DNA from: Candidatus Omnitrophota bacterium
Lineage (GTDB): Bacteria; Omnitrophota; Gorgyraeia; Zapsychrales; Fredricksoniimonadaceae
Length of the DNA stretch: 41,658 nt
Assembly: GCA_023247575.1 (NCBI GenBank)
Contig: JAHFGE010000003.1
Coordinates: 24,940-66,597 of the forward strand
Direction of reading: 5' to 3'
Part shown: piece by piece, positions 21,361 through 30,781 of the stretch
Layout of the letters: the number at the start of each line of letters is the position of its first letter
Numbering within the stretch: position 1 is the stretch's first letter
Notes under the pieces: generated by a model
What the model was told of the DNA's origin: nothing
What the model saw: the letters and a program-made list of their open reading frames with translations, nothing else
The model's database searches: none
Made by a program: the position numbers and the translations under genes

Positions 21361-22110
21361 ATGGATACATCAAATCCGACATTAAATGGCGGGATTTTCG
21401 CCAAAGCCAGAGCCGCGGTTGGTTCTGGTGGGACCATGACTGTTCAGGGAACAGTTAACAAAACGTTTATCCTGTTTGCGGTATTGTTATTGACCGCTGG
21501 CTGGAGCTGGAGCAATGCGTTTAGTCCAGAAAGAGCGCCACTAGTAGGCATTAGCCTTCTCGTTGGCTTGTTCGCTGGGCTGGTGTTGTGCTTTGCCACA
21601 GCGTTTAAGCCCAACTGGTCACCAGTGACAGCACCTTTGTATGCGGCCTGTGAAGGTGTGGTTTTGGGATCTATTTCCGTTTATTTTGAACGTTCTTATC
21701 CTGGTATTGTTGTTCAGGCCGTGGGATTAACCTTTGCGACGATGTTTGCCATGCTCATGGCTTATCGTACCGGCTGGATTCAAGCCACCGAGGGTTTCCG
21801 CCGTGGTTTAATGATTGCCATGATTGCCTTAATGGTTTTTTACGGCATTATATGGATTACCAGTTTGTTTGGTGTGCATCCGCCCAGCTTTATTAATGGC
21901 GGCGGCGCATTAGGAATTGGTTTTAGCCTTTTTGTAGTGGGATTGGCGGCGCTCAATTTGATTTTGGATTTTGATTTTATTGAACGCGCTTCTCAGGAAG
22001 GTTTGGAGAAATACATGGAGTGGTACGGTGCTTTTGCGCTGATGGTCACCTTAGTATGGTTGTATATGGAAATCTTAAGGTTGTTGTCTAAAATTAGTCG
22101 TCGCGATTGA
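21361..22110 (+). CDS. Bax inhibitor-1-like membrane protein (BaxI_1/COG4760 type)
   Basis: It has the N-terminus M.TSNPTL.., a soluble leader and then about 6-7 TM segments, ending in a charged tail. The AAGGAGG RBS is at 21348-21354. Confidence 0.75.
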   Translation: MDTSNPTLNGGIFAKARAAVGSGGTMTVQGTVNKTFILFAVLLLTAGWSWSNAFSPERAPLVGISLLVGLFAGLVLCFATAFKPNWSPVTAPLYAACEGVVLGSISVYFERSYPGIVVQAVGLTFATMFAMLMAYRTGWIQATEGFRRGLMIAMIALMVFYGIIWITSLFGVHPPSFINGGGALGIGFSLFVVGLAALNLILDFDFIERASQEGLEKYMEWYGAFALMVTLVWLYMEILRLLSKISRRD

Positions 22111-22114
22111 ATAT

Positions 22115-22138
22115 GTAGGGGGTACCCGCCTGCCCTAC
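22115..22138. repeat. GTAGGG...CCCTAC palindromic element
   Basis: GTAGGGGGTACCCGCCTGCCCTAC lies 4 nt after the BaxI-like stop. The outer stem is 6 bp and the inner GGGTACCC is a palindrome. Confidence 0.6.
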
Positions 22139-22172
22139 AAAGCCTACGGGACAAAAAATTTCACTTTCCATT

Positions 22173-22202
22173 TTGCATTTTGTTTTTCTTTGTTAATATA
22201 AT
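22173..22202 (+). promoter_or_regulatory. candidate sigma70-type promoter (TTGCAT-18 nt-TATAAT)
   Basis: The -35 TTGCAT is at 22173-22178 and the -10 TATAAT at 22197-22202, about 48 nt upstream of the ATG at 22250. The context is AT-rich, so this could arise by chance. Confidence 0.3.
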
Positions 22203-22249
22203 TCTACAAATAAAATTACCTAATCCAGAAATTAAGGGCGTAGTGCATT

Positions 22250-22825
22250 ATGACCCGTGATGAGATATATGACCATCTAGCAAAGGTGTATCTTGGCAAA
22301 CGGCAAAATGCCGCCGACCAAAAGAGGAAGAAAACTTTAAACCAATCATGGCTGGTTATCAATATTGCTATTACCACTGCCATTCTAATATCGACGGTAT
22401 ATGGCTTTACGGCTTTTTTAACCCATCGAGTGGTTCTTAAGAATGAAGTTTTCTATTCTCTCAACAATAATCCGATCCGTATTGTTTATGACCTTAATGA
22501 TCCTTTCCCGGCAACAAAAAATTTTTCTATTATCATTCCCCATAAGGACGTTTCTAAATACAATCGACTCAACCTAAGCATTCGTGGCATGAATGAAGCG
22601 TATCCCGGGGTTGTTAAAATAGTCGTCGGTAATCAGCTTAACGAAAAGGCCACCTATTTTATTAGAAATGTGGGAAACAATTGGCAGAAGGTTAGTATCC
22701 CATTGGAAAAATTGAATTTAACCGAGTGGAGTTCCGTGACAGATATTGCTTTTATACTTGAAGCCTGGAATCTAGACTTTAAAAAAGGTACTGTTTTGAT
22801 AGACGATATAAGTTTTTCGAATTAA
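22250..22825 (+). CDS. hypothetical single-pass membrane protein with C-terminal beta-sandwich (CBM/CIA30-like) domain
   Basis: It has a basic N-terminus (KRQNAADQKRKK), a TM segment (WLVINIAITTAILISTVYGFTAFL) and a C-terminus ending ..W..KGTVLIDDISFSN, reminiscent of carbohydrate-binding modules. No firm family can be assigned. Confidence 0.5.
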   Translation: MTRDEIYDHLAKVYLGKRQNAADQKRKKTLNQSWLVINIAITTAILISTVYGFTAFLTHRVVLKNEVFYSLNNNPIRIVYDLNDPFPATKNFSIIIPHKDVSKYNRLNLSIRGMNEAYPGVVKIVVGNQLNEKATYFIRNVGNNWQKVSIPLEKLNLTEWSSVTDIAFILEAWNLDFKKGTVLIDDISFSN

Positions 22826-22840
22826 TAAGAGGCTTTATTT

Positions 22841-23944
22841 ATGAAAATTATTTCCATAGCCAATCAAAAAGGGGGGTGTGGTAAAACAACAACAGCTATT
22901 AACTTAGCCTCCAGCCTTGGGTATCATGGCAAAAAAGTCCTTTTGATTGATCTGGATCCTCAGGCTCATGCCACGCTGGGTCTTAATGTTGATGAGAGCT
23001 ATAGCCTTTACAATGTTATTTCTAAATTAACTCCCCGTAAATTAGAAATTAAAAAAATTATTAAAACAGTTGATAAAAATTTTAATATTGTTCCTTCTAA
23101 CGTTTTGGTTGGCACTCTGGAACAAGAATTAGCCGATGAAATTGGCCGTGAATTGAAATTGGCTGAGATTATGGTGGAAATCAGGGATGACTATGATTAT
23201 ATCCTTATCGATTGCCCTCCCAGCCTAGGTTTTTTGACAGTCAATGCTATCCGTGCCAGCGATCAGGTGATTATTCCGGTGGAAACCAGTCGTTTTTCCC
23301 TGCAGGGGGTGGATCACTTAACAGACATCGTTAATCTTATTCGAGACCGTCTGAATCATCCGGTGCAAGAAAAGATTCTCGTTACCATGTTTGATTCCCG
23401 TTTGCGACATTCTTTTACCATGCTGGCCAAGATGAAAGAAAAATTTGGCAAACTTCTTTATGATACGATTGTGCATGTTAACGTCAAACTTAAAGAGGCA
23501 GCGGTGATGGGTGAGGCCGTTTTAACATATGACAAATACTGTCGCGGTGCGAAGGATTATTTAAGTTTGGCCAGTGAGATTCTTTTATTAGACAGGCCAA
23601 CCATCCCAACCCCGGGGGTTGAGGAGGTTTATAAGCCGACCCAACGTATGCAGGAGCTCGTGGCTCAAGAGACCAGTGAATTCATTGGTTTAGCTACTTT
23701 TGTTTTGAAAGCGCCCCAGGCTCAGTCGGTCTATGTCACCGGTTCCTTTAATGATTGGTCTTTGGATGAAAAATGCCGTATGATGAATAAGAAAGAGGTT
23801 TGGACCTTGAGCCTTCCGCTGAAGGCAGGTGTTTATAAATATCAGTTTATTGTTGATGGCAGGTGGCAGGAAGACCCTGAAAACAAAAAGACCGAACGCA
23901 ATTCCTTTGGAGATATTAATTCTCTTATTGAGGTTAAAGTTTAA
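22841..23944 (+). CDS. ParA/MinD-family ATPase fused to C-terminal CBM48 (AMPK-beta-like glycogen-binding) domain
   Basis: It has a deviant Walker A (IANQKGGCGKTTTAINLA), A' (VLLIDLDPQ) and Walker B (YDYILIDCPPSLG). The C-terminus VYVTGSFNDWS...LPLKAGVYKYQFIVDGRWQEDPEN...GDINSLIEV matches the GSFNxW / YxYKFxVDGxWxxDP hallmark of CBM48. Confidence 0.85.
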   Translation: MKIISIANQKGGCGKTTTAINLASSLGYHGKKVLLIDLDPQAHATLGLNVDESYSLYNVISKLTPRKLEIKKIIKTVDKNFNIVPSNVLVGTLEQELADEIGRELKLAEIMVEIRDDYDYILIDCPPSLGFLTVNAIRASDQVIIPVETSRFSLQGVDHLTDIVNLIRDRLNHPVQEKILVTMFDSRLRHSFTMLAKMKEKFGKLLYDTIVHVNVKLKEAAVMGEAVLTYDKYCRGAKDYLSLASEILLLDRPTIPTPGVEEVYKPTQRMQELVAQETSEFIGLATFVLKAPQAQSVYVTGSFNDWSLDEKCRMMNKKEVWTLSLPLKAGVYKYQFIVDGRWQEDPENKKTERNSFGDINSLIEVKV

Positions 23945-24261
23945 TGCCAGAAAGTTTTTCCAAGCAAGAAATTCTCGACGGTAAAATCTACGCACTTTTG
24001 GCTTATCTTTCCATTCTTTGCATTATTCCGCTGATTGTTAAAAAAGATAATCCTTTTGTTTTAGCTCACGGCAAACAAGGCCTAGTTCTTTTTATTGCCC
24101 AGACAGCGGTGTGGATTCTCAGCATTGTCATTCCGATGGTTTTGGCACCATTGATGTTTATCTTTATGCTCTTGTCTTTTTGCGGGCTTATTGCTGTTGT
24201 TAAGGGAGAATTTGTACGTCTTCCCGTTGTTGCTGATTGGGCGGATAAAATCTCCTTATAA
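23944..24261 (+). CDS. DUF4870-like small membrane protein
   Basis: ALLAYLSILCIIPLIVKKDNPFVLAHGKQGLVLFI fits the DUF4870 pattern (..iPli..kd..fv.fHakQ.l.l). It has 3 TM segments and a TAATG overlap with the ParA gene. Confidence 0.6.
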   Translation: MPESFSKQEILDGKIYALLAYLSILCIIPLIVKKDNPFVLAHGKQGLVLFIAQTAVWILSIVIPMVLAPLMFIFMLLSFCGLIAVVKGEFVRLPVVADWADKISL

Positions 24262-24263
24262 CT

Positions 24264-24668
24264 ATGTCAATCTTACGGAAGTTATCTGATGTCCTTCAAG
24301 AGGTTTTCTGGATAAAACCTTCTAAGAAAAAATTTTTGCGCAGTCGTAGAGCTCCAGCCAAGAAAGCGCCGAAAAAGAAATTCATAAAGCCGCGGCAGGG
24401 ACCGGCCCGTACACTACCTTTCAATTTAGTCAAAGTTGGTGAAATTACCCATTATTTTGATCGGATTAAGGTTTGTGTCATCAAGGTTACCCAGGGTACG
24501 ATATTGATTGGCGATAGATTGACCATCGTGGGGCCTAAAGTGCAGTTTATTCAGAAAGTATGGTCGATGCAAATTGAAAGTGAGGATGTCAAAGTAGCTA
24601 AAAAAGGTCAGCTCATTGGCCTTAAAATAGATAAGCCGGTGCGGGTTGGCGATATGGTTTATAAATAG
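24264..24668 (+). CDS. translation-elongation-factor-like (EF-Tu domain 2 barrel) small protein with highly basic N-terminal extension
   Basis: The C-terminal 80 aa (VGEITHYFDRIKVCVIKVT.G.ILIGDRL.I.G....F.Q.V.SMQIE.EDV..AKKGQLIGLK.D.PVRVGD.VYK) match the small EF-like beta-barrel family. Residues 18-49 (KPSKKKFLRSRRAPAKKAPKKKFIKPRQGPAR) contain 15 K/R out of 32. Confidence 0.65.
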   Translation: MSILRKLSDVLQEVFWIKPSKKKFLRSRRAPAKKAPKKKFIKPRQGPARTLPFNLVKVGEITHYFDRIKVCVIKVTQGTILIGDRLTIVGPKVQFIQKVWSMQIESEDVKVAKKGQLIGLKIDKPVRVGDMVYK

Positions 24669-24671
24669 AAT

Positions 24672-24854
24672 ATGAAAAATGAAAAAGCCCAAAATGTGGT
24701 GGAATATATTTTGCTTGCTGTTGCCGTTATTTTAGTTTTCCTCATTCTTTTAAATCCTCAGGCTGGTCCCGTGAAACAATCCGTCAATGGTATGCTGTAT
24801 AGCACAGTCGACAAACTTCATAACATGACTCAGGAAATTAAAATTACCCCTTAA
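24672..24854 (+). CDS. small Flp/class-III-signal-peptide-like protein
   Basis: MKNEKAQ|NVVEYILLAVAVILVFLILL resembles the Flp-type prepilin motif (G/A-x-x-x-x-EY plus a hydrophobic helix). The protein is 60 aa. No Tad genes lie nearby. Confidence 0.4.
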   Translation: MKNEKAQNVVEYILLAVAVILVFLILLNPQAGPVKQSVNGMLYSTVDKLHNMTQEIKITP

Positions 24855-25276
24855 TGAAAATCAGCGCTTCCCATAAAGACTTGATCCGTCGCTATTTGCT
24901 TTGGGCGTATAAAACAACCAAAGAATCATTTGAACGCATTGAACGCAAGACCACCCAGCTCATGGTGGATGAGTATATATTAAAGGCATTAAAGCAAAAT
25001 ACTCGGTGCGAGGCAGCCGTACAGAAAGACTATCAAAAATTTATTGAGGAATTTGAACAATATATTGCCAGAAAGAAAGAAGATGAAGTTAAGCAGAAAT
25101 TTGCTGATGGTAGTAGAAAAGTTCTTCATCCTCAGTATATTTATTTAGAAAGGCGTTTGTTGGTTATTGAAGGGGCTATAAAATATTTTTTAGGCCCCGA
25201 TACGCTAAAAACGATGAAAGAGCTTTATGAGAAAGAATTTACCAATCGTATTCTCCAAGCTCGGGAACATACATAA
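24854..25276 (+). CDS. hypothetical cytoplasmic helical protein
   Basis: This 140-aa open frame has a TAATG overlap with the upstream gene and a charged, helical composition. I recognise no motif. Confidence 0.5.
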   Translation: MKISASHKDLIRRYLLWAYKTTKESFERIERKTTQLMVDEYILKALKQNTRCEAAVQKDYQKFIEEFEQYIARKKEDEVKQKFADGSRKVLHPQYIYLERRLLVIEGAIKYFLGPDTLKTMKELYEKEFTNRILQAREHT

Positions 25277-25715
25277 GGTACTCCTGCTTATATTGTTTTT
25301 TTTGATTTCGATAGTCTTTCCATCCCATGCCGCCATTGAAATTTATGCCGGAGGCAAGCACTTTGACTCTTTTGAAGATTATCAAGCAAGTCACCGGAGT
25401 AATTTATTAGATCATATGAAGCTTAGCGGCCCTATTCAAGAGAGCCGTCAGGCTCCATTTATTTCAAGGGAAGTTCGCCGAAAGTTAGACAAAATCAGTT
25501 ACAATAGTGGCGTGTATCATGTTATTGTAGACTTCCAACAGAATTGGCAGAATCCTAAACCTCGGTTTATTATGGATGCTCAGGAGCTTCAGGATGTGCT
25601 TCAAGAAACCATAGAAGGCCAACAGGGGCCGGTGCTTTTGATTTCCGACCCTAAGAAAATGCGGATTATGTCCTATTCTTCAAATTCAAATGTTGAGAAT
25701 AAACAGAAGCAGTAA
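25227..25715 (+). CDS. hypothetical secreted protein
   Basis: It has a signal peptide (VLLLILFFLISIVFPSHA|AIEIY) and is 162 aa. It overlaps the upstream ORF by 50 nt, so the start is uncertain. Confidence 0.5.
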   Translation: MRKNLPIVFSKLGNIHKVLLLILFFLISIVFPSHAAIEIYAGGKHFDSFEDYQASHRSNLLDHMKLSGPIQESRQAPFISREVRRKLDKISYNSGVYHVIVDFQQNWQNPKPRFIMDAQELQDVLQETIEGQQGPVLLISDPKKMRIMSYSSNSNVENKQKQ

Positions 25716-25729
25716 TTAAGGAGGGGTAT

Positions 25730-25909
25730 ATGGCTGAAGAAAAGAAGGAAGAAAGTTGTTCAACGAAGGGCGGCTGTGGTTGCTGTAGCGGAGTTAAACA
25801 GCTTATTATTGGGCTGCTTTTAGGGGCGTTGATTTTCGCCTTTGGCTATTTTGTCGCCCAGGGTGGATGTCCTTTCGGTTCTAAAATATGCCCATTGATG
25901 CAGCGTTAA
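25730..25909 (+). CDS. 59-aa Cys-rich small membrane protein (not in ORF track)
   Basis: A strong AAGGAGG RBS at 25717-25723 lies 6 nt before the ATG at 25730. The sequence is MAEEKKEESCSTKGGCGCCSGVKQLIIGLLLGALIFAFGYFVAQGGCPFGSKICPLMQR, with 7 Cys flanking one TM helix. Confidence 0.5.
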   Translation: MAEEKKEESCSTKGGCGCCSGVKQLIIGLLLGALIFAFGYFVAQGGCPFGSKICPLMQR

Positions 25910-27108
25910 AGGAAAAATTAGTACGGACGATTATCTTGGCCATCATTGGCTGGTATTTGCTCTTGATAGTCGTGCATTATTTTAACCAGCGCCCTTTATG
26001 GAATGATGAACAGTGTATTTTATTAAATATTCAGCAAATGAGGCCTTCGGATCTATTCCACAACCCTTTGCTTAGCTTGCAAGAGTTTCCCCGAACTTAT
26101 CTTTATATCATCCAGCAATTCTCCAGCCATTTTAATTTTCAATTATTGGCTTTACGTTTTTTTCCGTTTGGCAGTATGTTGACAGCTTTTTTTATTTGGA
26201 TTTATTTAGCCCAAAAGCAAATACCGTCTTTAATAGGCCTTTTAACGTTTTTTTTATGCTGGGCTGCCAGCGCACCTTTGATCTATTATGCAGCTGAATT
26301 GAAGCAATATTCTATGGACGTACTGGTAAGCTCTTTATTTCTACTTTTTTTGTATCATCAAAAAACTTTCCGAAAACATTTCTGCGGGCCAATATATGCG
26401 TTGATCTTATTGCTTCTTGCAGTTTCAGGGCTGTTGTCTTATCCTGCGTTCTTTTTTATGCCGCTACCTTTATATAACCTCTGGATGGATGCTAAAGAAG
26501 ATTCTCGCTGGCGGCCATTGGTATGGCTTTATCTGCTTAGTTGCCTCGGTTGTTTTCTCGCTGTTTACTATTTTGATTTTCGCGTTAGTACCAGCAATAT
26601 TGCTTCATTAAAAGTATATTGGAAAAATTATTTTATTTCTTTTGATTCCCCAGTACATTTTTTTAGAAGTGTGCAAGAAGGGTTAAATGGATTTATATCC
26701 CGCTGGTTTGTTGAAAAACCCAGATGGATCCGCATGGCCGCAAGATTTTTTGTGGGGATCGGCTTTCTGCGCCTTTTGCTGGGGGCTTGGCCTATATTTA
26801 AAAAAGAAGGATTGCATTTTATGAGTATTCACAGCATTGCGGGTATTGTTTTTTTAGAATATTTTATTCTAAGTGCCTTTAAAAATATTGCCTTCGGAGT
26901 TCCACGGGTCTCTTTATTTTTTGCTCCCATGCTTTTGTTTCTGACGGTTGATGCTCTCCAATGGCTTAAGCAGCACAATGGAGTTCTTTATGCGTTGGCA
27001 CAGTATCCTTTTTTAATTTATCTGCTCTACATATCCTTAGGCATTGCCAGGATGATTTTTGCGGGGGATTTGGGCGCAGAACCATTTATTTGGAGACAAA
27101 TAGTCTGA
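25888..27108 (+). CDS. polytopic membrane protein, possibly GT-C (ArnT/PMT-like) glycosyltransferase
   Basis: About 10 TM segments. The first loop, RPLWNDEQCILLNIQQM, resembles the DE-containing loop of the GT39/GT83 families. The assignment is weak. Confidence 0.45.
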   Translation: MPIDAALKEKLVRTIILAIIGWYLLLIVVHYFNQRPLWNDEQCILLNIQQMRPSDLFHNPLLSLQEFPRTYLYIIQQFSSHFNFQLLALRFFPFGSMLTAFFIWIYLAQKQIPSLIGLLTFFLCWAASAPLIYYAAELKQYSMDVLVSSLFLLFLYHQKTFRKHFCGPIYALILLLLAVSGLLSYPAFFFMPLPLYNLWMDAKEDSRWRPLVWLYLLSCLGCFLAVYYFDFRVSTSNIASLKVYWKNYFISFDSPVHFFRSVQEGLNGFISRWFVEKPRWIRMAARFFVGIGFLRLLLGAWPIFKKEGLHFMSIHSIAGIVFLEYFILSAFKNIAFGVPRVSLFFAPMLLFLTVDALQWLKQHNGVLYALAQYPFLIYLLYISLGIARMIFAGDLGAEPFIWRQIV

Positions 27109-27161
27109 CATTAATTTTGCGGTATGCTATACTTCTTTTAATATTTTAATAGGAGCAGGTT

Positions 27162-28697
27162 ATGCGTGCAGGAGTTATTGATATAGGATCATCAACGACT
27201 AAATTGCTTATCGGCGAGCGCCAGGGAGAAGATGTTAGAATTATAGAGTCCCTTAAAAACGCCGTGCCTTTAGGTCGCCATGCCTTTTTAAAACCTCGTA
27301 TCCCACAGACCATCATTAATCAAACCGCCTCTGTCTTACAAAAGTATAAAGAAACGCTTAAAGAATATGATGTTTCTGATGTCACTGTCATCGCCACCAC
27401 CGCTGTACGCGAGGCCCGTAATCAGGACATTTTTTTAGATACAGTTTTACGCAAGACTGGCTTTAAGATCGACGTACTTAATGTTGGTGATGTGGTGTAT
27501 TACATTGATTATTTCCTCTCTCATAAGCTCAAGAAAACCTATCCAGTGGATGAAAAGAATTTATTGATTGCTGAATTGGGCGCAGGAAGTCTTGACATGT
27601 CGGTGATGGAAAAAGGTCTAACCTTGGTCAATATTGGTTTTCCTGTCGGTACCCTTCGTTTATCTCAGTTTATGGAACATTTAGATGGCTCTATGCAGGA
27701 AATCCATGAGGCTACCGAAGAGTATATTGAGAATGAAATCCTGTTCTTGAAAAAGAATAATCCATCCTTGAAAATCGACGATATCATCTTGATCGATGAG
27801 AATTATTCCGTTTTTATTCAGAATATCCTGCCTAACAAACGTCGCGATTCGGATTTTTTTAAATTTAAATCGTCGGAGGCTCAGGAGTTTCTTTTACGTC
27901 TGCGCCAGATGAACTCGGAAGAAATTGCTAGGACCTATAATGTACCGCCTGATGTTGCCACGACCATCGTAGGTTTTGCCATCATTCTCAATACGCTTCT
28001 GAAAATTAATAAGAGCGAATATGTCTATATCCTGGAAGCTTCTTTATCCGAGGCTATCTTAGCCAACCAGCTTTTCCGTCTGGAAACTTCTGAGAAGACC
28101 GATAAGATAAGTCAGTTGGTTTCTGTGGCGCATTTTCTGTGTCGCAAATATGGCATGGATTTAGATCATCTCAAACACGTGGCCACCATAACACAACAAT
28201 TATTCGATGCTTTTAAGGACATTTTAGGCTTGGATCAGCAGGATCGTCTGTATTTAATTTTGGCGTCCTATTTGCACGATTTGGGTATGTTTATCAATAA
28301 TCGCTCTCACCACAAACACAGCGAATACATTATCAGCTCTTCCAATCTGTTTCGCCTGACAGAAGATGAGATTAATATCATTGCTTGCATTGCCCGCTAT
28401 CATCGACGGTCAGCACCTTTAAAGACCCACTTGGTTTATAACTCCTTATCTTCCCAGCAGCAGATTTTAGTCCAGAAACTCAGTGCGCTTTTGCGTATTG
28501 CCAATGCTTTGGATCGTTCGCATAAGCAAAAGGCCAAGGGTTTAGAAGTGAAGTTTAATGCTAGCGGTGACGCCACTATCATTGTTTACACCAACGAGAA
28601 TTTTTTATTGGAAAAAGAAAATTTTTTGGAGAAAAAGGAACTTTTTGAAGAAATTACTGGCAATCAATTGACGTTGGCGGTCAAAAGCCAGCAGTAG
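27162..28697 (+). CDS. ppx: exopolyphosphatase / Ppx-GppA family phosphatase with HD domain
   Basis: It has an actin-like ATPase fold start (MRAGVIDIGSSTTKLLIGE, AELGAGSLD) and a C-terminal HD region (YLHDLGMFIN.RSHHKHSEYII, ARYHRRS). The protein is 511 aa. Confidence 0.88.
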   Translation: MRAGVIDIGSSTTKLLIGERQGEDVRIIESLKNAVPLGRHAFLKPRIPQTIINQTASVLQKYKETLKEYDVSDVTVIATTAVREARNQDIFLDTVLRKTGFKIDVLNVGDVVYYIDYFLSHKLKKTYPVDEKNLLIAELGAGSLDMSVMEKGLTLVNIGFPVGTLRLSQFMEHLDGSMQEIHEATEEYIENEILFLKKNNPSLKIDDIILIDENYSVFIQNILPNKRRDSDFFKFKSSEAQEFLLRLRQMNSEEIARTYNVPPDVATTIVGFAIILNTLLKINKSEYVYILEASLSEAILANQLFRLETSEKTDKISQLVSVAHFLCRKYGMDLDHLKHVATITQQLFDAFKDILGLDQQDRLYLILASYLHDLGMFINNRSHHKHSEYIISSSNLFRLTEDEINIIACIARYHRRSAPLKTHLVYNSLSSQQQILVQKLSALLRIANALDRSHKQKAKGLEVKFNASGDATIIVYTNENFLLEKENFLEKKELFEEITGNQLTLAVKSQQ

Positions 28698-28722
28698 AGA
28701 CGCAGCAATGCTACGTCTGTAC
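28694..28722. repeat. GTAGAGACGCAGC-AAT-GCTACGTCTGTAC palindrome, second copy of the 3977 element
   Basis: It differs from copy 1 at 2 positions in the right arm. It overlaps the ppx stop codon (TAG, 28695-28697). Confidence 0.8.
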
Positions 28723-28735
28723 AACGAAAAGAATT

Positions 28736-30781
28736 ATGGAACTAAAAGATAAATTTATTCATAGAGACTTAAGCTGGCTGGAGTTTAACCGCCGAGTTTT
28801 GGAAGAAGCGGCGGATGAACGTAATCCCCTGTTGGAGCGCTTGAAATTTTTAAGTATTTTTAGCAGTAATCTGGACGAATTTTACATGGTGCGTTTGGCA
28901 GGGGCCAAGAAGCTCTTGGCCTCTGGTTTTAATCGTAAAGATCAATTCGGGTTTACTCCTCAGGAGATATTTGCCGAAGTTAAACTAAAAGCCGATAGCT
29001 TAGTCAAAGACCTTTACGATATTTATACCGGTTCACTCAAGGTAACCCTGGAGACTAACAGGATTTACCTAAAGACCATTGATCAGTTAAATGAGACCCA
29101 GAAAAAGTTTGTTAAACGTTTTTTTGATACCACGCTTTATCCCATCATTACGCCCATGGCGGTCGATCAAGGGCATCCTTTTCCTGACCTTCCTTCGAAA
29201 ACCATTGCTTTGGCTGTCTCCATTGTTCGCTTGGAGAAAAACCATTTAGCCTTGGTCCCTGTACCGAAATCTGTACCACGTCTACTTAAACTGCCTTCCG
29301 AAGGAGAAGACTTTGATTTCATCTTGATCGACCATTTGATTAAGGACAATCTGAAAGATTTTTTTAAAGGATATAAAATTCAAGCAGCCTCGGCCTTTCG
29401 CTTACTGCGTGATAGTGACATTGCTTTCGATGAGGAATTCGCGCCCAATTTACTTAAGGCTATGGAAAAGGAGTTGAAAAAACGTACAAGCGCTCAAACG
29501 GTTTACGTGCAGATGGAGCAGGCCCCGACCGTACTACCATCTGGGGAGGTGGCTAATGCCGAATTGGTTGATGTCCTCTGCAATGGACTTGGCTTCCCAA
29601 AAGAAGAAGTGGCTTTTGTCCCCCCTGATTTGGATTTGACGTTTTTTTATGAGATGGCTAATAGCATTGACCGGCCCGGAGGACGTTTTGATAGTTTCTC
29701 GCCAGTCAAAACTCCTTATGAAAATATTTTCGACAAAATCAAAGAAGAGGATTTTATCATTCACTTGCCTTTTCAATCCTTCTTTCCAACGGAGGATTTG
29801 GTGCAGACCTCTGCCAAAGATCCGGATGTACTGGCCATTAAAATGACGCTTTATCGTACTAATGAAGATTCTAATATTATTAAAGCGCTTATGGAAGCGG
29901 CTAAGCGACGCAAACAAGTCACGGCTGTGGTTGAGATCAAGGCTCGGTTTGAAGAAGAAAAGAACATTCAATGGGCCCGGGATCTGGAGCAGGCTGGTTG
30001 TCATGTCATTTACGGGATTGCTGGTTTAAAAATTCATTCCAAGATGACCTTAATTGTCCGTCGGGAAGAAGGACGCATCCGCCGGTATGTACACCTTTCT
30101 ACTGGTAATTACAATGAAAAGACAGCGCGCCTGTATACGGATATTGGATATTTTACTGCCAATGATGATTTCGCCCGCGATGTGGCTGACGTTTTTAACG
30201 TCATTACCGGTTATTCGCAACCCAGTCCCTGGAAGAGGGTTATTTCTTCGCCGTATGATTTACGCAAATACTTTTTAGATCTCATCGATCGCGAAATGGA
30301 GCATCAAAAAACTCATAAAAATGGCCTTATTACCGCTAAAATGAATTCTTTAGAAGACGTAGCTATGATTGAGAAGCTTTATGCAGCTTCCCAGGCGGGG
30401 GTTAAAATCCGGATGGTGGTACGAGGGATTTGCTGTTTGATTCCGGGGGTAGAGGGTTTAAGTGAGAATATTGAAGTGAGCAGTGTGGTTGGTCAATTTT
30501 TGGAGCATTCACGAATTTTTGTTTTTCACAATAACGGCACCCCAAGAATTTTTTTATCCTCGGCAGACTGGATGACGCGCAATTTCGACCGTCGCATTGA
30601 GTTGTTATTTGAAATTACTAAACCTGAAATTAAAACACACTTGCAATTCATATTAGATAATTATTTAAAGGATAGTTTTAAGGTGCGTATTTTGAAAAGT
30701 AATAAAATTTATACACGTTTATCAAAGGATCAGGCATCTTTTAGCGTTCAGGAATATTTTATTAAGCATTATACGAAATAA
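28736..30781 (+). CDS. ppk: polyphosphate kinase 1
   Basis: It carries FIHRDLSWLEFNRRVLEEAADERNPLLERLKFLSIFSSNLDEFYMVR plus two PLD-like domains (KIHSKMTLIVR, ..FLEHSRIF). The protein is 681 aa. Confidence 0.95.
   Translation: MELKDKFIHRDLSWLEFNRRVLEEAADERNPLLERLKFLSIFSSNLDEFYMVRLAGAKKLLASGFNRKDQFGFTPQEIFAEVKLKADSLVKDLYDIYTGSLKVTLETNRIYLKTIDQLNETQKKFVKRFFDTTLYPIITPMAVDQGHPFPDLPSKTIALAVSIVRLEKNHLALVPVPKSVPRLLKLPSEGEDFDFILIDHLIKDNLKDFFKGYKIQAASAFRLLRDSDIAFDEEFAPNLLKAMEKELKKRTSAQTVYVQMEQAPTVLPSGEVANAELVDVLCNGLGFPKEEVAFVPPDLDLTFFYEMANSIDRPGGRFDSFSPVKTPYENIFDKIKEEDFIIHLPFQSFFPTEDLVQTSAKDPDVLAIKMTLYRTNEDSNIIKALMEAAKRRKQVTAVVEIKARFEEEKNIQWARDLEQAGCHVIYGIAGLKIHSKMTLIVRREEGRIRRYVHLSTGNYNEKTARLYTDIGYFTANDDFARDVADVFNVITGYSQPSPWKRVISSPYDLRKYFLDLIDREMEHQKTHKNGLITAKMNSLEDVAMIEKLYAASQAGVKIRMVVRGICCLIPGVEGLSENIEVSSVVGQFLEHSRIFVFHNNGTPRIFLSSADWMTRNFDRRIELLFEITKPEIKTHLQFILDNYLKDSFKVRILKSNKIYTRLSKDQASFSVQEYFIKHYTK

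Follow-up and report, generated by a model that had tools for sequence, protein, structure and literature searches.

To our knowledge, most ParA-type ATPases that position cargo are 'orphans' without a known partner, and no system that positions glycogen granules has been described in bacteria. Partners of the McdB type are reportedly recognised by a stable gene order beside the ParA-type ATPase and by an N-terminal helix that bears lysines. Established partners such as ParB have additional, separate functions. The partners of ParA/MinD ATPases generally carry a positively charged, disordered N-terminus (10.1101/2022.06.09.495121). [quoted passage not shown] Among barrel proteins, Pbp11 of Pyrococcus abyssi requires its disordered N-terminal tail for tRNA binding (PMC9540759). 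Structures of Pbp11 are available from P. abyssi (7ANU) and P. furiosus (1XE1).

The window, the whole 41,658 nt stretch of Omnitrophota DNA analysed here, encodes a small basic protein, EFL, in a closely packed array with a ParA-type ATPase fused to a glycogen-binding module (ParA-CBM48). EFL had been put forward as a partner and ATPase-activating adaptor of this ATPase (the original prediction), on the strength of an EF-Tu-domain-2-like barrel preceded by a lysine/arginine-rich tail. The presence of ParA-CBM48 two genes upstream of EFL is confirmed by its domain matches (AAA_31, 1e-55; AMPK1_CBM, 2.5e-16; CBM_48, 2.2e-6). A literature search on ParA, glycogen, CBM48 and Omnitrophota found nothing on this system. 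Coordinates are collected in Table 1. Labels f, g, L and G denote families, genera, loci and genomes; EFL, g191, TM105 and Flp60 denote proteins.

Table 1. Features of the EFL and ParA-CBM48 region, in window coordinates
Feature	Position	Strand	Basis
g191, membrane protein, 191 aa, upstream of ParA-CBM48	22250..22825	+	conserved cytoplasmic N-terminal peptide
ParA-type ATPase fused to CBM48/AMPK glycogen-binding module (ParA-CBM48)	22841..23944	+	Pfam
TM105, DUF4870-like membrane protein, 105 aa, between ParA-CBM48 and EFL	23944..24261	+	weak PF09685 match
EFL, basic-tailed barrel protein, 134 aa	24264..24668	+	ORF; 346 full-length homologues
EFL residues 1–17, conserved N-terminal amphipathic helix, MSILRKLSDVLQEVFWI	24264..24314	+	AlphaFold2 and conservation
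EFL residues 18–55, polybasic disordered linker, histone-H1-tail-like	24315..24428	+	composition, pLDDT < 50
EFL residues 56–134, translation-factor-type beta-barrel	24429..24665	+	AlphaFold2, Foldseek; Pfam sub-threshold
Flp60, Flp-like membrane mini-protein, 60 aa, directly downstream of EFL	24672..24854	+	

Architecture of the EFL protein

The EFL reading frame is genuine and encodes 134 aa; its ATG lies 3 nt past the stop codon of the preceding gene, and 3 nt separate its own stop codon from the start of the next. Homologues span 99–100 % of the query, and the length of the tail differs among them. Conservation extends over the first 20 residues, some of which do not vary at all: E13, F15 and W16 are identical in all 58 sequences compared, and K6, K12, V14 and K18 are nearly so. 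A mis-called start, which inspection by eye had already spoken against, is thereby ruled out.

Residues 18–49 (nt 24315–24410), KPSKKKFLRSRRAPAKKAPKKKFIKPRQGPAR, contain 10 lysines and 5 arginines, which bears out the 15 K/R in 32 residues counted originally. Against a K+R background of 10.2 %, taken from the 23 ORFs of at least 200 aa in the window, this corresponds to a binomial P of 1.3e-7, and none of the 9,790 segments of 32 aa in those ORFs reaches 15 K/R; a basic stretch arising by chance is ruled out on these figures. The linker as a whole (residues 18–55) consists of 39 % Lys/Arg, with 15 K/R, no Asp or Glu and a net charge of +14.8, and the pI of the entire protein is 10.6. Residues 1–30 include 9 K/R, giving EFL the positively charged N-terminus that is a feature of ParA/MinD partners; the same is true of family members in genomes without ParA-CBM48.

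An AlphaFold2 model based on 58 homologues predicts a helix at residues 3–14, disorder at 15–55 and a barrel at 57–133, with pLDDT above 90 in the barrel and below 50 in the tail. The extension is made up of two parts, an amphipathic helix and then a polybasic linker. The linker is rich in K, R, A, P and S, which we take to be a likeness to bacterial H1-like proteins such as chlamydial Hc1 and Hc2, AlgP and the tail of mycobacterial HupB. Unlike EFL, these proteins have neither a translation-factor barrel nor an N-terminal amphipathic helix.

That the C-terminal ~80 aa form an EF-Tu-domain-2-like barrel holds at the level of fold, with Pfam sequence scores below threshold. EFL reaches 19.8 bits against a threshold of 23.8 for PF14578, 20.1 against 30.3 for PF03144, and 18.5 against 28.2 for PF16325 (Peptidase_U32_C), for which the best match spans residues 58–132; EFL stands alone, without the U32 catalytic domain. 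Some close homologues of EFL do carry a precomputed PF03144 match. When the family profile was searched against the sequences of solved structures, the only match was ribosomal protein eS8, at an insignificant E of 0.09. Structural comparison by Foldseek placed the U32 C-terminal domain 4HE5 first (TM 0.85 on the target, 82 columns, 18 % identity), followed after 4HE5/4HE6 by IF2, Pbp11 (7ANU) and EF-Tu domain II, with a probability of 1.00 for 4HE5, IF2, EF-Tu and 7ANU. On the predicted model, the barrel clearly has the translation-protein beta-barrel fold (EF-Tu domain II / IF2-C2 / U32-C).

None of the structural relatives is a close counterpart. The U32 C-terminal domain (PF16325, 4HE5/4HE6), the best structural match, differs from EFL in being part of large enzymes, and its function is not established. 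The C2 domain of IF2 and domain II of EF-Tu share the barrel fold and a similar motif spacing (G-x-I-T-H-Y-F ... S-M-Q-I-E ... G-x-x-I-G-L ... G-D), whereas the GTPase domain is absent from EFL. The residues by which IF2-C2 holds fMet-tRNA (the KRYK and ECG motifs) presumably correspond to QIES and LIG in EFL. Pbp11 is, like EFL, a small stand-alone EF-Tu-domain-II-type barrel placed after a disordered N-terminal tail. It differs from EFL in its archaeal origin (Thermococcales), its short tail and its binding to the proteasome regulator PAN, and it lacks both the amphipathic helix and the long H1-like linker. The similarity between the two is weak: EFL scores 14.9 bits against the cut-off of 100 for the Pbp11 equivalog NF041207, and Foldseek aligns it to 7ANU at 25 % identity over 80 columns with an E of 5e-3 and TM of 0.39/0.57. 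EFL is thus a small barrel of translation-factor type that stands alone and carries a basic tail, and proteins of a similar kind are already known; its combination of helix, H1-like tail and translation-factor barrel is covered by no curated family.

Distribution of EFL and its linkage to ParA-CBM48

EFL is a mostly single-copy, phylum-wide family of Omnitrophota built of helix, H1-like linker and barrel. Of 401 sampled Omnitrophota genomes, 333 (83 %) yielded a match, and the source names on EFL homologues point to the same phylum. An exhaustive search with the barrel returned 1,762 clusters at 50 % identity. The barrel family had originally been described as normally lacking an extension, and this is contradicted among the nearest relatives: 130 of the 142 single-barrel representative clusters are extended at the N-terminus by 40 aa or more (median 91 aa). 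A separate, word-indexed search with the barrel alone reached only close relatives and was uninformative on tail-less families in other phyla. The extension is therefore present in this copy as described, but is the family norm and not peculiar to it. Its composition across the same 142 clusters is 38 % K+R and 2.4 % D+E. An amphipathic start of the type M-S-I-L-K-K-F-L-x-S-L-K-K-I-F is found in 85 % of EFL representative clusters; the hydrophobic moment of the N-terminus has a median of 0.75, compared with 0.56 for internal tail controls, and is at least 0.6 in 85 % of the clusters. One 1,841-aa representative (P0122) contains 16 separate stretches that match the 82-aa barrel query and is apparently a giant of repeated barrel fragments.

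A tree of 114 EFL barrels tracks taxonomy, and copies linked to ParA-CBM48 are interleaved with copies that are not. A separate ParA-linked paralogue of EFL is ruled out by this pattern. Linked and unlinked copies instead make up one orthologous EFL family, which has moved into and out of the ParA-CBM48 operon.

Gene order ties EFL to the ATPase in a large part of the phylum. Of the 30 loci that matched best, 28 share the order ParA-CBM48, TM105, EFL, Flp-like mini-protein and a 140-aa protein, with EFL on the strand of the ATPase gene. A further 80 loci, from families outside the order of the window, were anchored on ParA-CBM48 and not on EFL. Within the core clade, defined as ParA-CBM48 at least ~49 % identical to that of the window (f21, f27, f32, f37, f39, f44, f45 and f52), 56 of the 59 loci that could be assessed, drawn from about nine other families, have EFL downstream of the ATPase gene, on its strand and no more than 1.2 kb away. 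The gap between the two genes is often 14–40 nt, and usually below 100 nt where TM105 is absent. In the order of the window, 54 genomes have ParA-CBM48, and 38 of them have EFL linked to it. That the gene order is so stable in about 18 families speaks for co-expression and for a functional link of some kind. E-value cut-offs in the full-length ParA-CBM48 search did not cleanly separate the fusion from Soj-type ParA, and calls of ParA-CBM48 presence relied on how far matches covered the two domains and on the fetched loci.

Presence and absence of the two genes, by contrast, are uncoupled. ParA-CBM48 occurs without an EFL match anywhere in 12 of the 54 genomes of the window's order (89–96 % complete). 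At loci L031–L041 EFL is cleanly missing between TM105 and the Flp-like gene, or unrelated insertions stand in its place, and no copy is found elsewhere in these genomes. In family f18 EFL was found in none of 11 genomes, full-length ParA-CBM48 being present in genomes 94–100 % complete; three f18 genomes gave no significant EFL match even at E up to 10. The sampled genomes of f20 are similar, with ParA-CBM48 and no EFL. In total, ParA-CBM48 lacks EFL in at least five lineages (f1 g4–g6, f4 g31, f6 g27/g28/g33, f18 and f20). Both genes are present and unlinked in f10, f11, f26, f35, f46, f49, f51 and three genomes of another class, with linkage in 0 of 12 loci from the distant ParA-CBM48 clades f10, f26, f35 and f46 and in 0 of 3 loci from f51. 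EFL in turn occurs without any CBM48 domain in f14, f17, f25 and f28 and in five of six f19 genomes. By rough family-level counts, the frequency of EFL is about four in five whether or not ParA-CBM48 is present. Co-inheritance of the two, whose absence the original prediction had named as grounds for refutation, was thus not found, and each occurs without the other in several families.

Two kinds of replacement were seen at the EFL position. Loci L031 and L040 carry unrelated insertions of 2.5–3.8 kb in place of EFL. At L038 (6957–7310, genome G327), a 118-aa ORF lies between the DUF4870-like and Flp-like genes with EFL missing; on visual inspection, its product looks like the four-helix-bundle proteins that intervening sequences of 23S rRNA encode.

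A different context is conserved in family f60, which belongs to another class. In all nine loci (L057–L065) EFL lies between a gene for RNase E/G and a gene for a CCA-adding/poly(A) polymerase, with RmuC sometimes after RNase E/G. In four of these nine loci a conserved ORF of ~110 aa comes after EFL; it has no Pfam match and shows a zinc-ribbon motif, CxxC...CPxC.

Possible roles of EFL

The reading that we favour, with a probability of roughly 45 %, is that EFL is a general polyanion (nucleic-acid) binder that the ParA-CBM48 operon has taken in as a dispensable accessory. The tail would bind a polyanion electrostatically; nucleic acid would be the likeliest ligand, either RNA/tRNA, as the likeness to Pbp11 suggests, or nucleoid DNA. 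The barrel would contribute a conserved specific contact, and the helix could bind reversibly to the membrane or to a partner protein. Nucleic acid is suggested by the Pbp11 analogy, the H1-like composition and, in the other class, the neighbouring genes for RNA processing; the suggestion draws on composition and a distant structural analogy. The core function of EFL would be independent of ParA. In the clade of the present genome, the single EFL copy would have been drawn into the g191 and ParA-CBM48 operon and kept there, where its accessory role might be a link to nucleoid, RNA or membrane, or a second contact with ParA. EFL is dispensable for ParA-CBM48, as seen from the clean losses at L031–L041 and its absence from all 11 f18 genomes, and it is probably not an obligate, dedicated ATPase activator of ParA-CBM48.

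A direct activator role would have the basic N-terminus of EFL dock at the ATP-bound ParA dimer and stimulate hydrolysis, the remainder of the protein linking cargo or matrix. EFL resembles ParA/MinD partners (alpha-McdB, the ParB N-terminal peptide, MinE and PomX) in being small and encoded just downstream of a ParA-type ATPase. The features by which McdB-type partners are recognised are found here, and an activator role therefore fits the same data. The core clade (56 of 59 loci) has EFL immediately downstream on the strand of the ATPase gene, and the window's order has the two genes linked (38 of 54 genomes). Like alpha-McdB (PMC12139897), EFL begins with a lysine-bearing helix (residues 3–14; near-invariant K6, K12 and K18) and continues into disorder, and partners generally use a positively charged disordered N-terminus (10.1101/2022.06.09.495121). 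If EFL has a ParA-docking peptide, residues 1–20 would be a better candidate than the residues 18–49 proposed originally, because alpha-McdB docks through its first 20 residues.

Nonetheless, we consider this activator role unlikely. EFL shares no homology with the known partners, has a distribution largely independent of the ATPase, and has no known cargo-binding role for its barrel. ParA-CBM48 persists without EFL in the five or more lineages listed above, and the genes are unlinked in seven families and in another class. EFL with its tail is found in many genomes without ParA-CBM48; the tail is family-wide and was not gained next to ParA; and no ParA-linked subfamily separates in the tree. 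Additionally, linked copies in f21 have plain poly-Lys in place of the N-terminal helix, and the strictly co-inherited neighbour of the ATPase is a different protein, g191, with a conserved N-terminal peptide of its own (66 of 66 loci). Of the proposal that EFL is the ParA-CBM48 activator, the gene order (28 of 30 and 56 of 59 loci) and the McdB-like anatomy stand, while uncoupled presence, a family-wide tail and an interleaved tree weigh against it. Since partners such as ParB have functions of their own, an independent distribution still leaves room for a partnership between EFL and ParA.

We entertain as a doubtful idea that EFL belongs to a new class of ParA/MinD partner, in which the lysine helix would dock on the ParA-CBM48 dimer and the H1-like tail and barrel would hold nucleic acid or membrane. 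If this were true, glycogen granules bound by CBM48 would be positioned against a matrix of nucleoid, RNA or membrane. The usual arrangement would then be reversed, the ATPase carrying the cargo-binding module and the partner the matrix-binding module.

EFL as a peripheral membrane protein, its helix and basic residues inserting in anionic membranes and its barrel acting together with TM105 and Flp60, appears still more improbable. The N-termini of MinE, SepF, Noc and MreB insert in membranes and provide the basis of comparison for the EFL helix. A pattern of two hydrophobic, two basic and two hydrophobic residues recurs in the helix of 85 % of representative clusters, the array consists mostly of genes for membrane or secreted proteins, and EFL is fused in frame to an Flp-like protein at L010 and adjoins a TM105-type protein at L052 in a genome without CBM48. 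However, the latter two are single cases, and the helix is absent from many members, such as the f21 copies that start MALKKKK. In the family of the window, the helix is also invariant in sequence (KEVFWIKPS), which suits protein contact over a generic anchor.

Binding of the lysine-rich tail to polyphosphate or another non-nucleic polyanion is very improbable: polylysine tracts bind polyphosphate, and ppx and ppk lie downstream at 27162–30781, with ppx again after the array in L002, a locus from the same genus, but no ppx was found in the 13 kb loci of related genomes (L031–L044 and L066–L070), no feature of the barrel suggests polyphosphate, and the ppx-ppk link is rejected as an adjacency local to the genus.

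Few uncharacterised small proteins are as widespread in Omnitrophota as EFL, and its ligand would inform on a whole uncultivated phylum.

g191 and the other neighbours of ParA-CBM48

Candidate partners of ParA-CBM48 are narrowed by these comparisons: g191 is strictly co-inherited with it, and EFL is frequent, dispensable and would have a function of its own as well. Among loci whose flanks were long enough, the gene for g191 adjoins ParA-CBM48 on its upstream side in 22 of 23 and in 66 of 66. The cytoplasmic N-terminus of the protein, which precedes the transmembrane helix, carries the strongly conserved motif M-x-R-D/E-E-I-Y-D-H-L-A-x-V-Y-L-G-K-R. Judged from sequence and gene order, g191 is the better partner candidate of the two.

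Downstream, TM105 is found in 26 of 59 core-clade loci, and Flp60 is kept after EFL in the order of the window. Membrane or secreted proteins are the products of most genes in the array. A scan for promoters and terminators across 22000–27300 gave none above shuffled background, a result compatible with a single operon that proves nothing.

Several loci show unusual arrangements of these neighbours. In L010 (1501–2076, genome G183, f5), EFL and the Flp-like mini-protein form one in-frame ORF of 192 aa, which was seen once and reflects either a real fusion or an error in sequencing. At L052 (6481–7510, genome G083, f25), a TM105-type protein adjoins EFL in a genome without any CBM48 match, and the TM105–EFL pair may be linked independently of ParA. 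A 431-aa ORF at L142 (1501–2793, genome G332, f21) joins ParA-CBM48 (query residues 1–331) to the C-terminal part of a TM105-type protein; this, too, was seen once, and it may have arisen in assembly.

A longer variant of g191 is present in f18. In the f18 loci L071–L073, the distant ParA-CBM48 is preceded by a protein of ~270 aa, whose motif Q-E-Q-L-A-D-I-Y-F resembles the g191 N-terminal peptide. The genes after ParA-CBM48 in this family look, by eye, like a NUDIX hydrolase and a DUF151-type nuclease.
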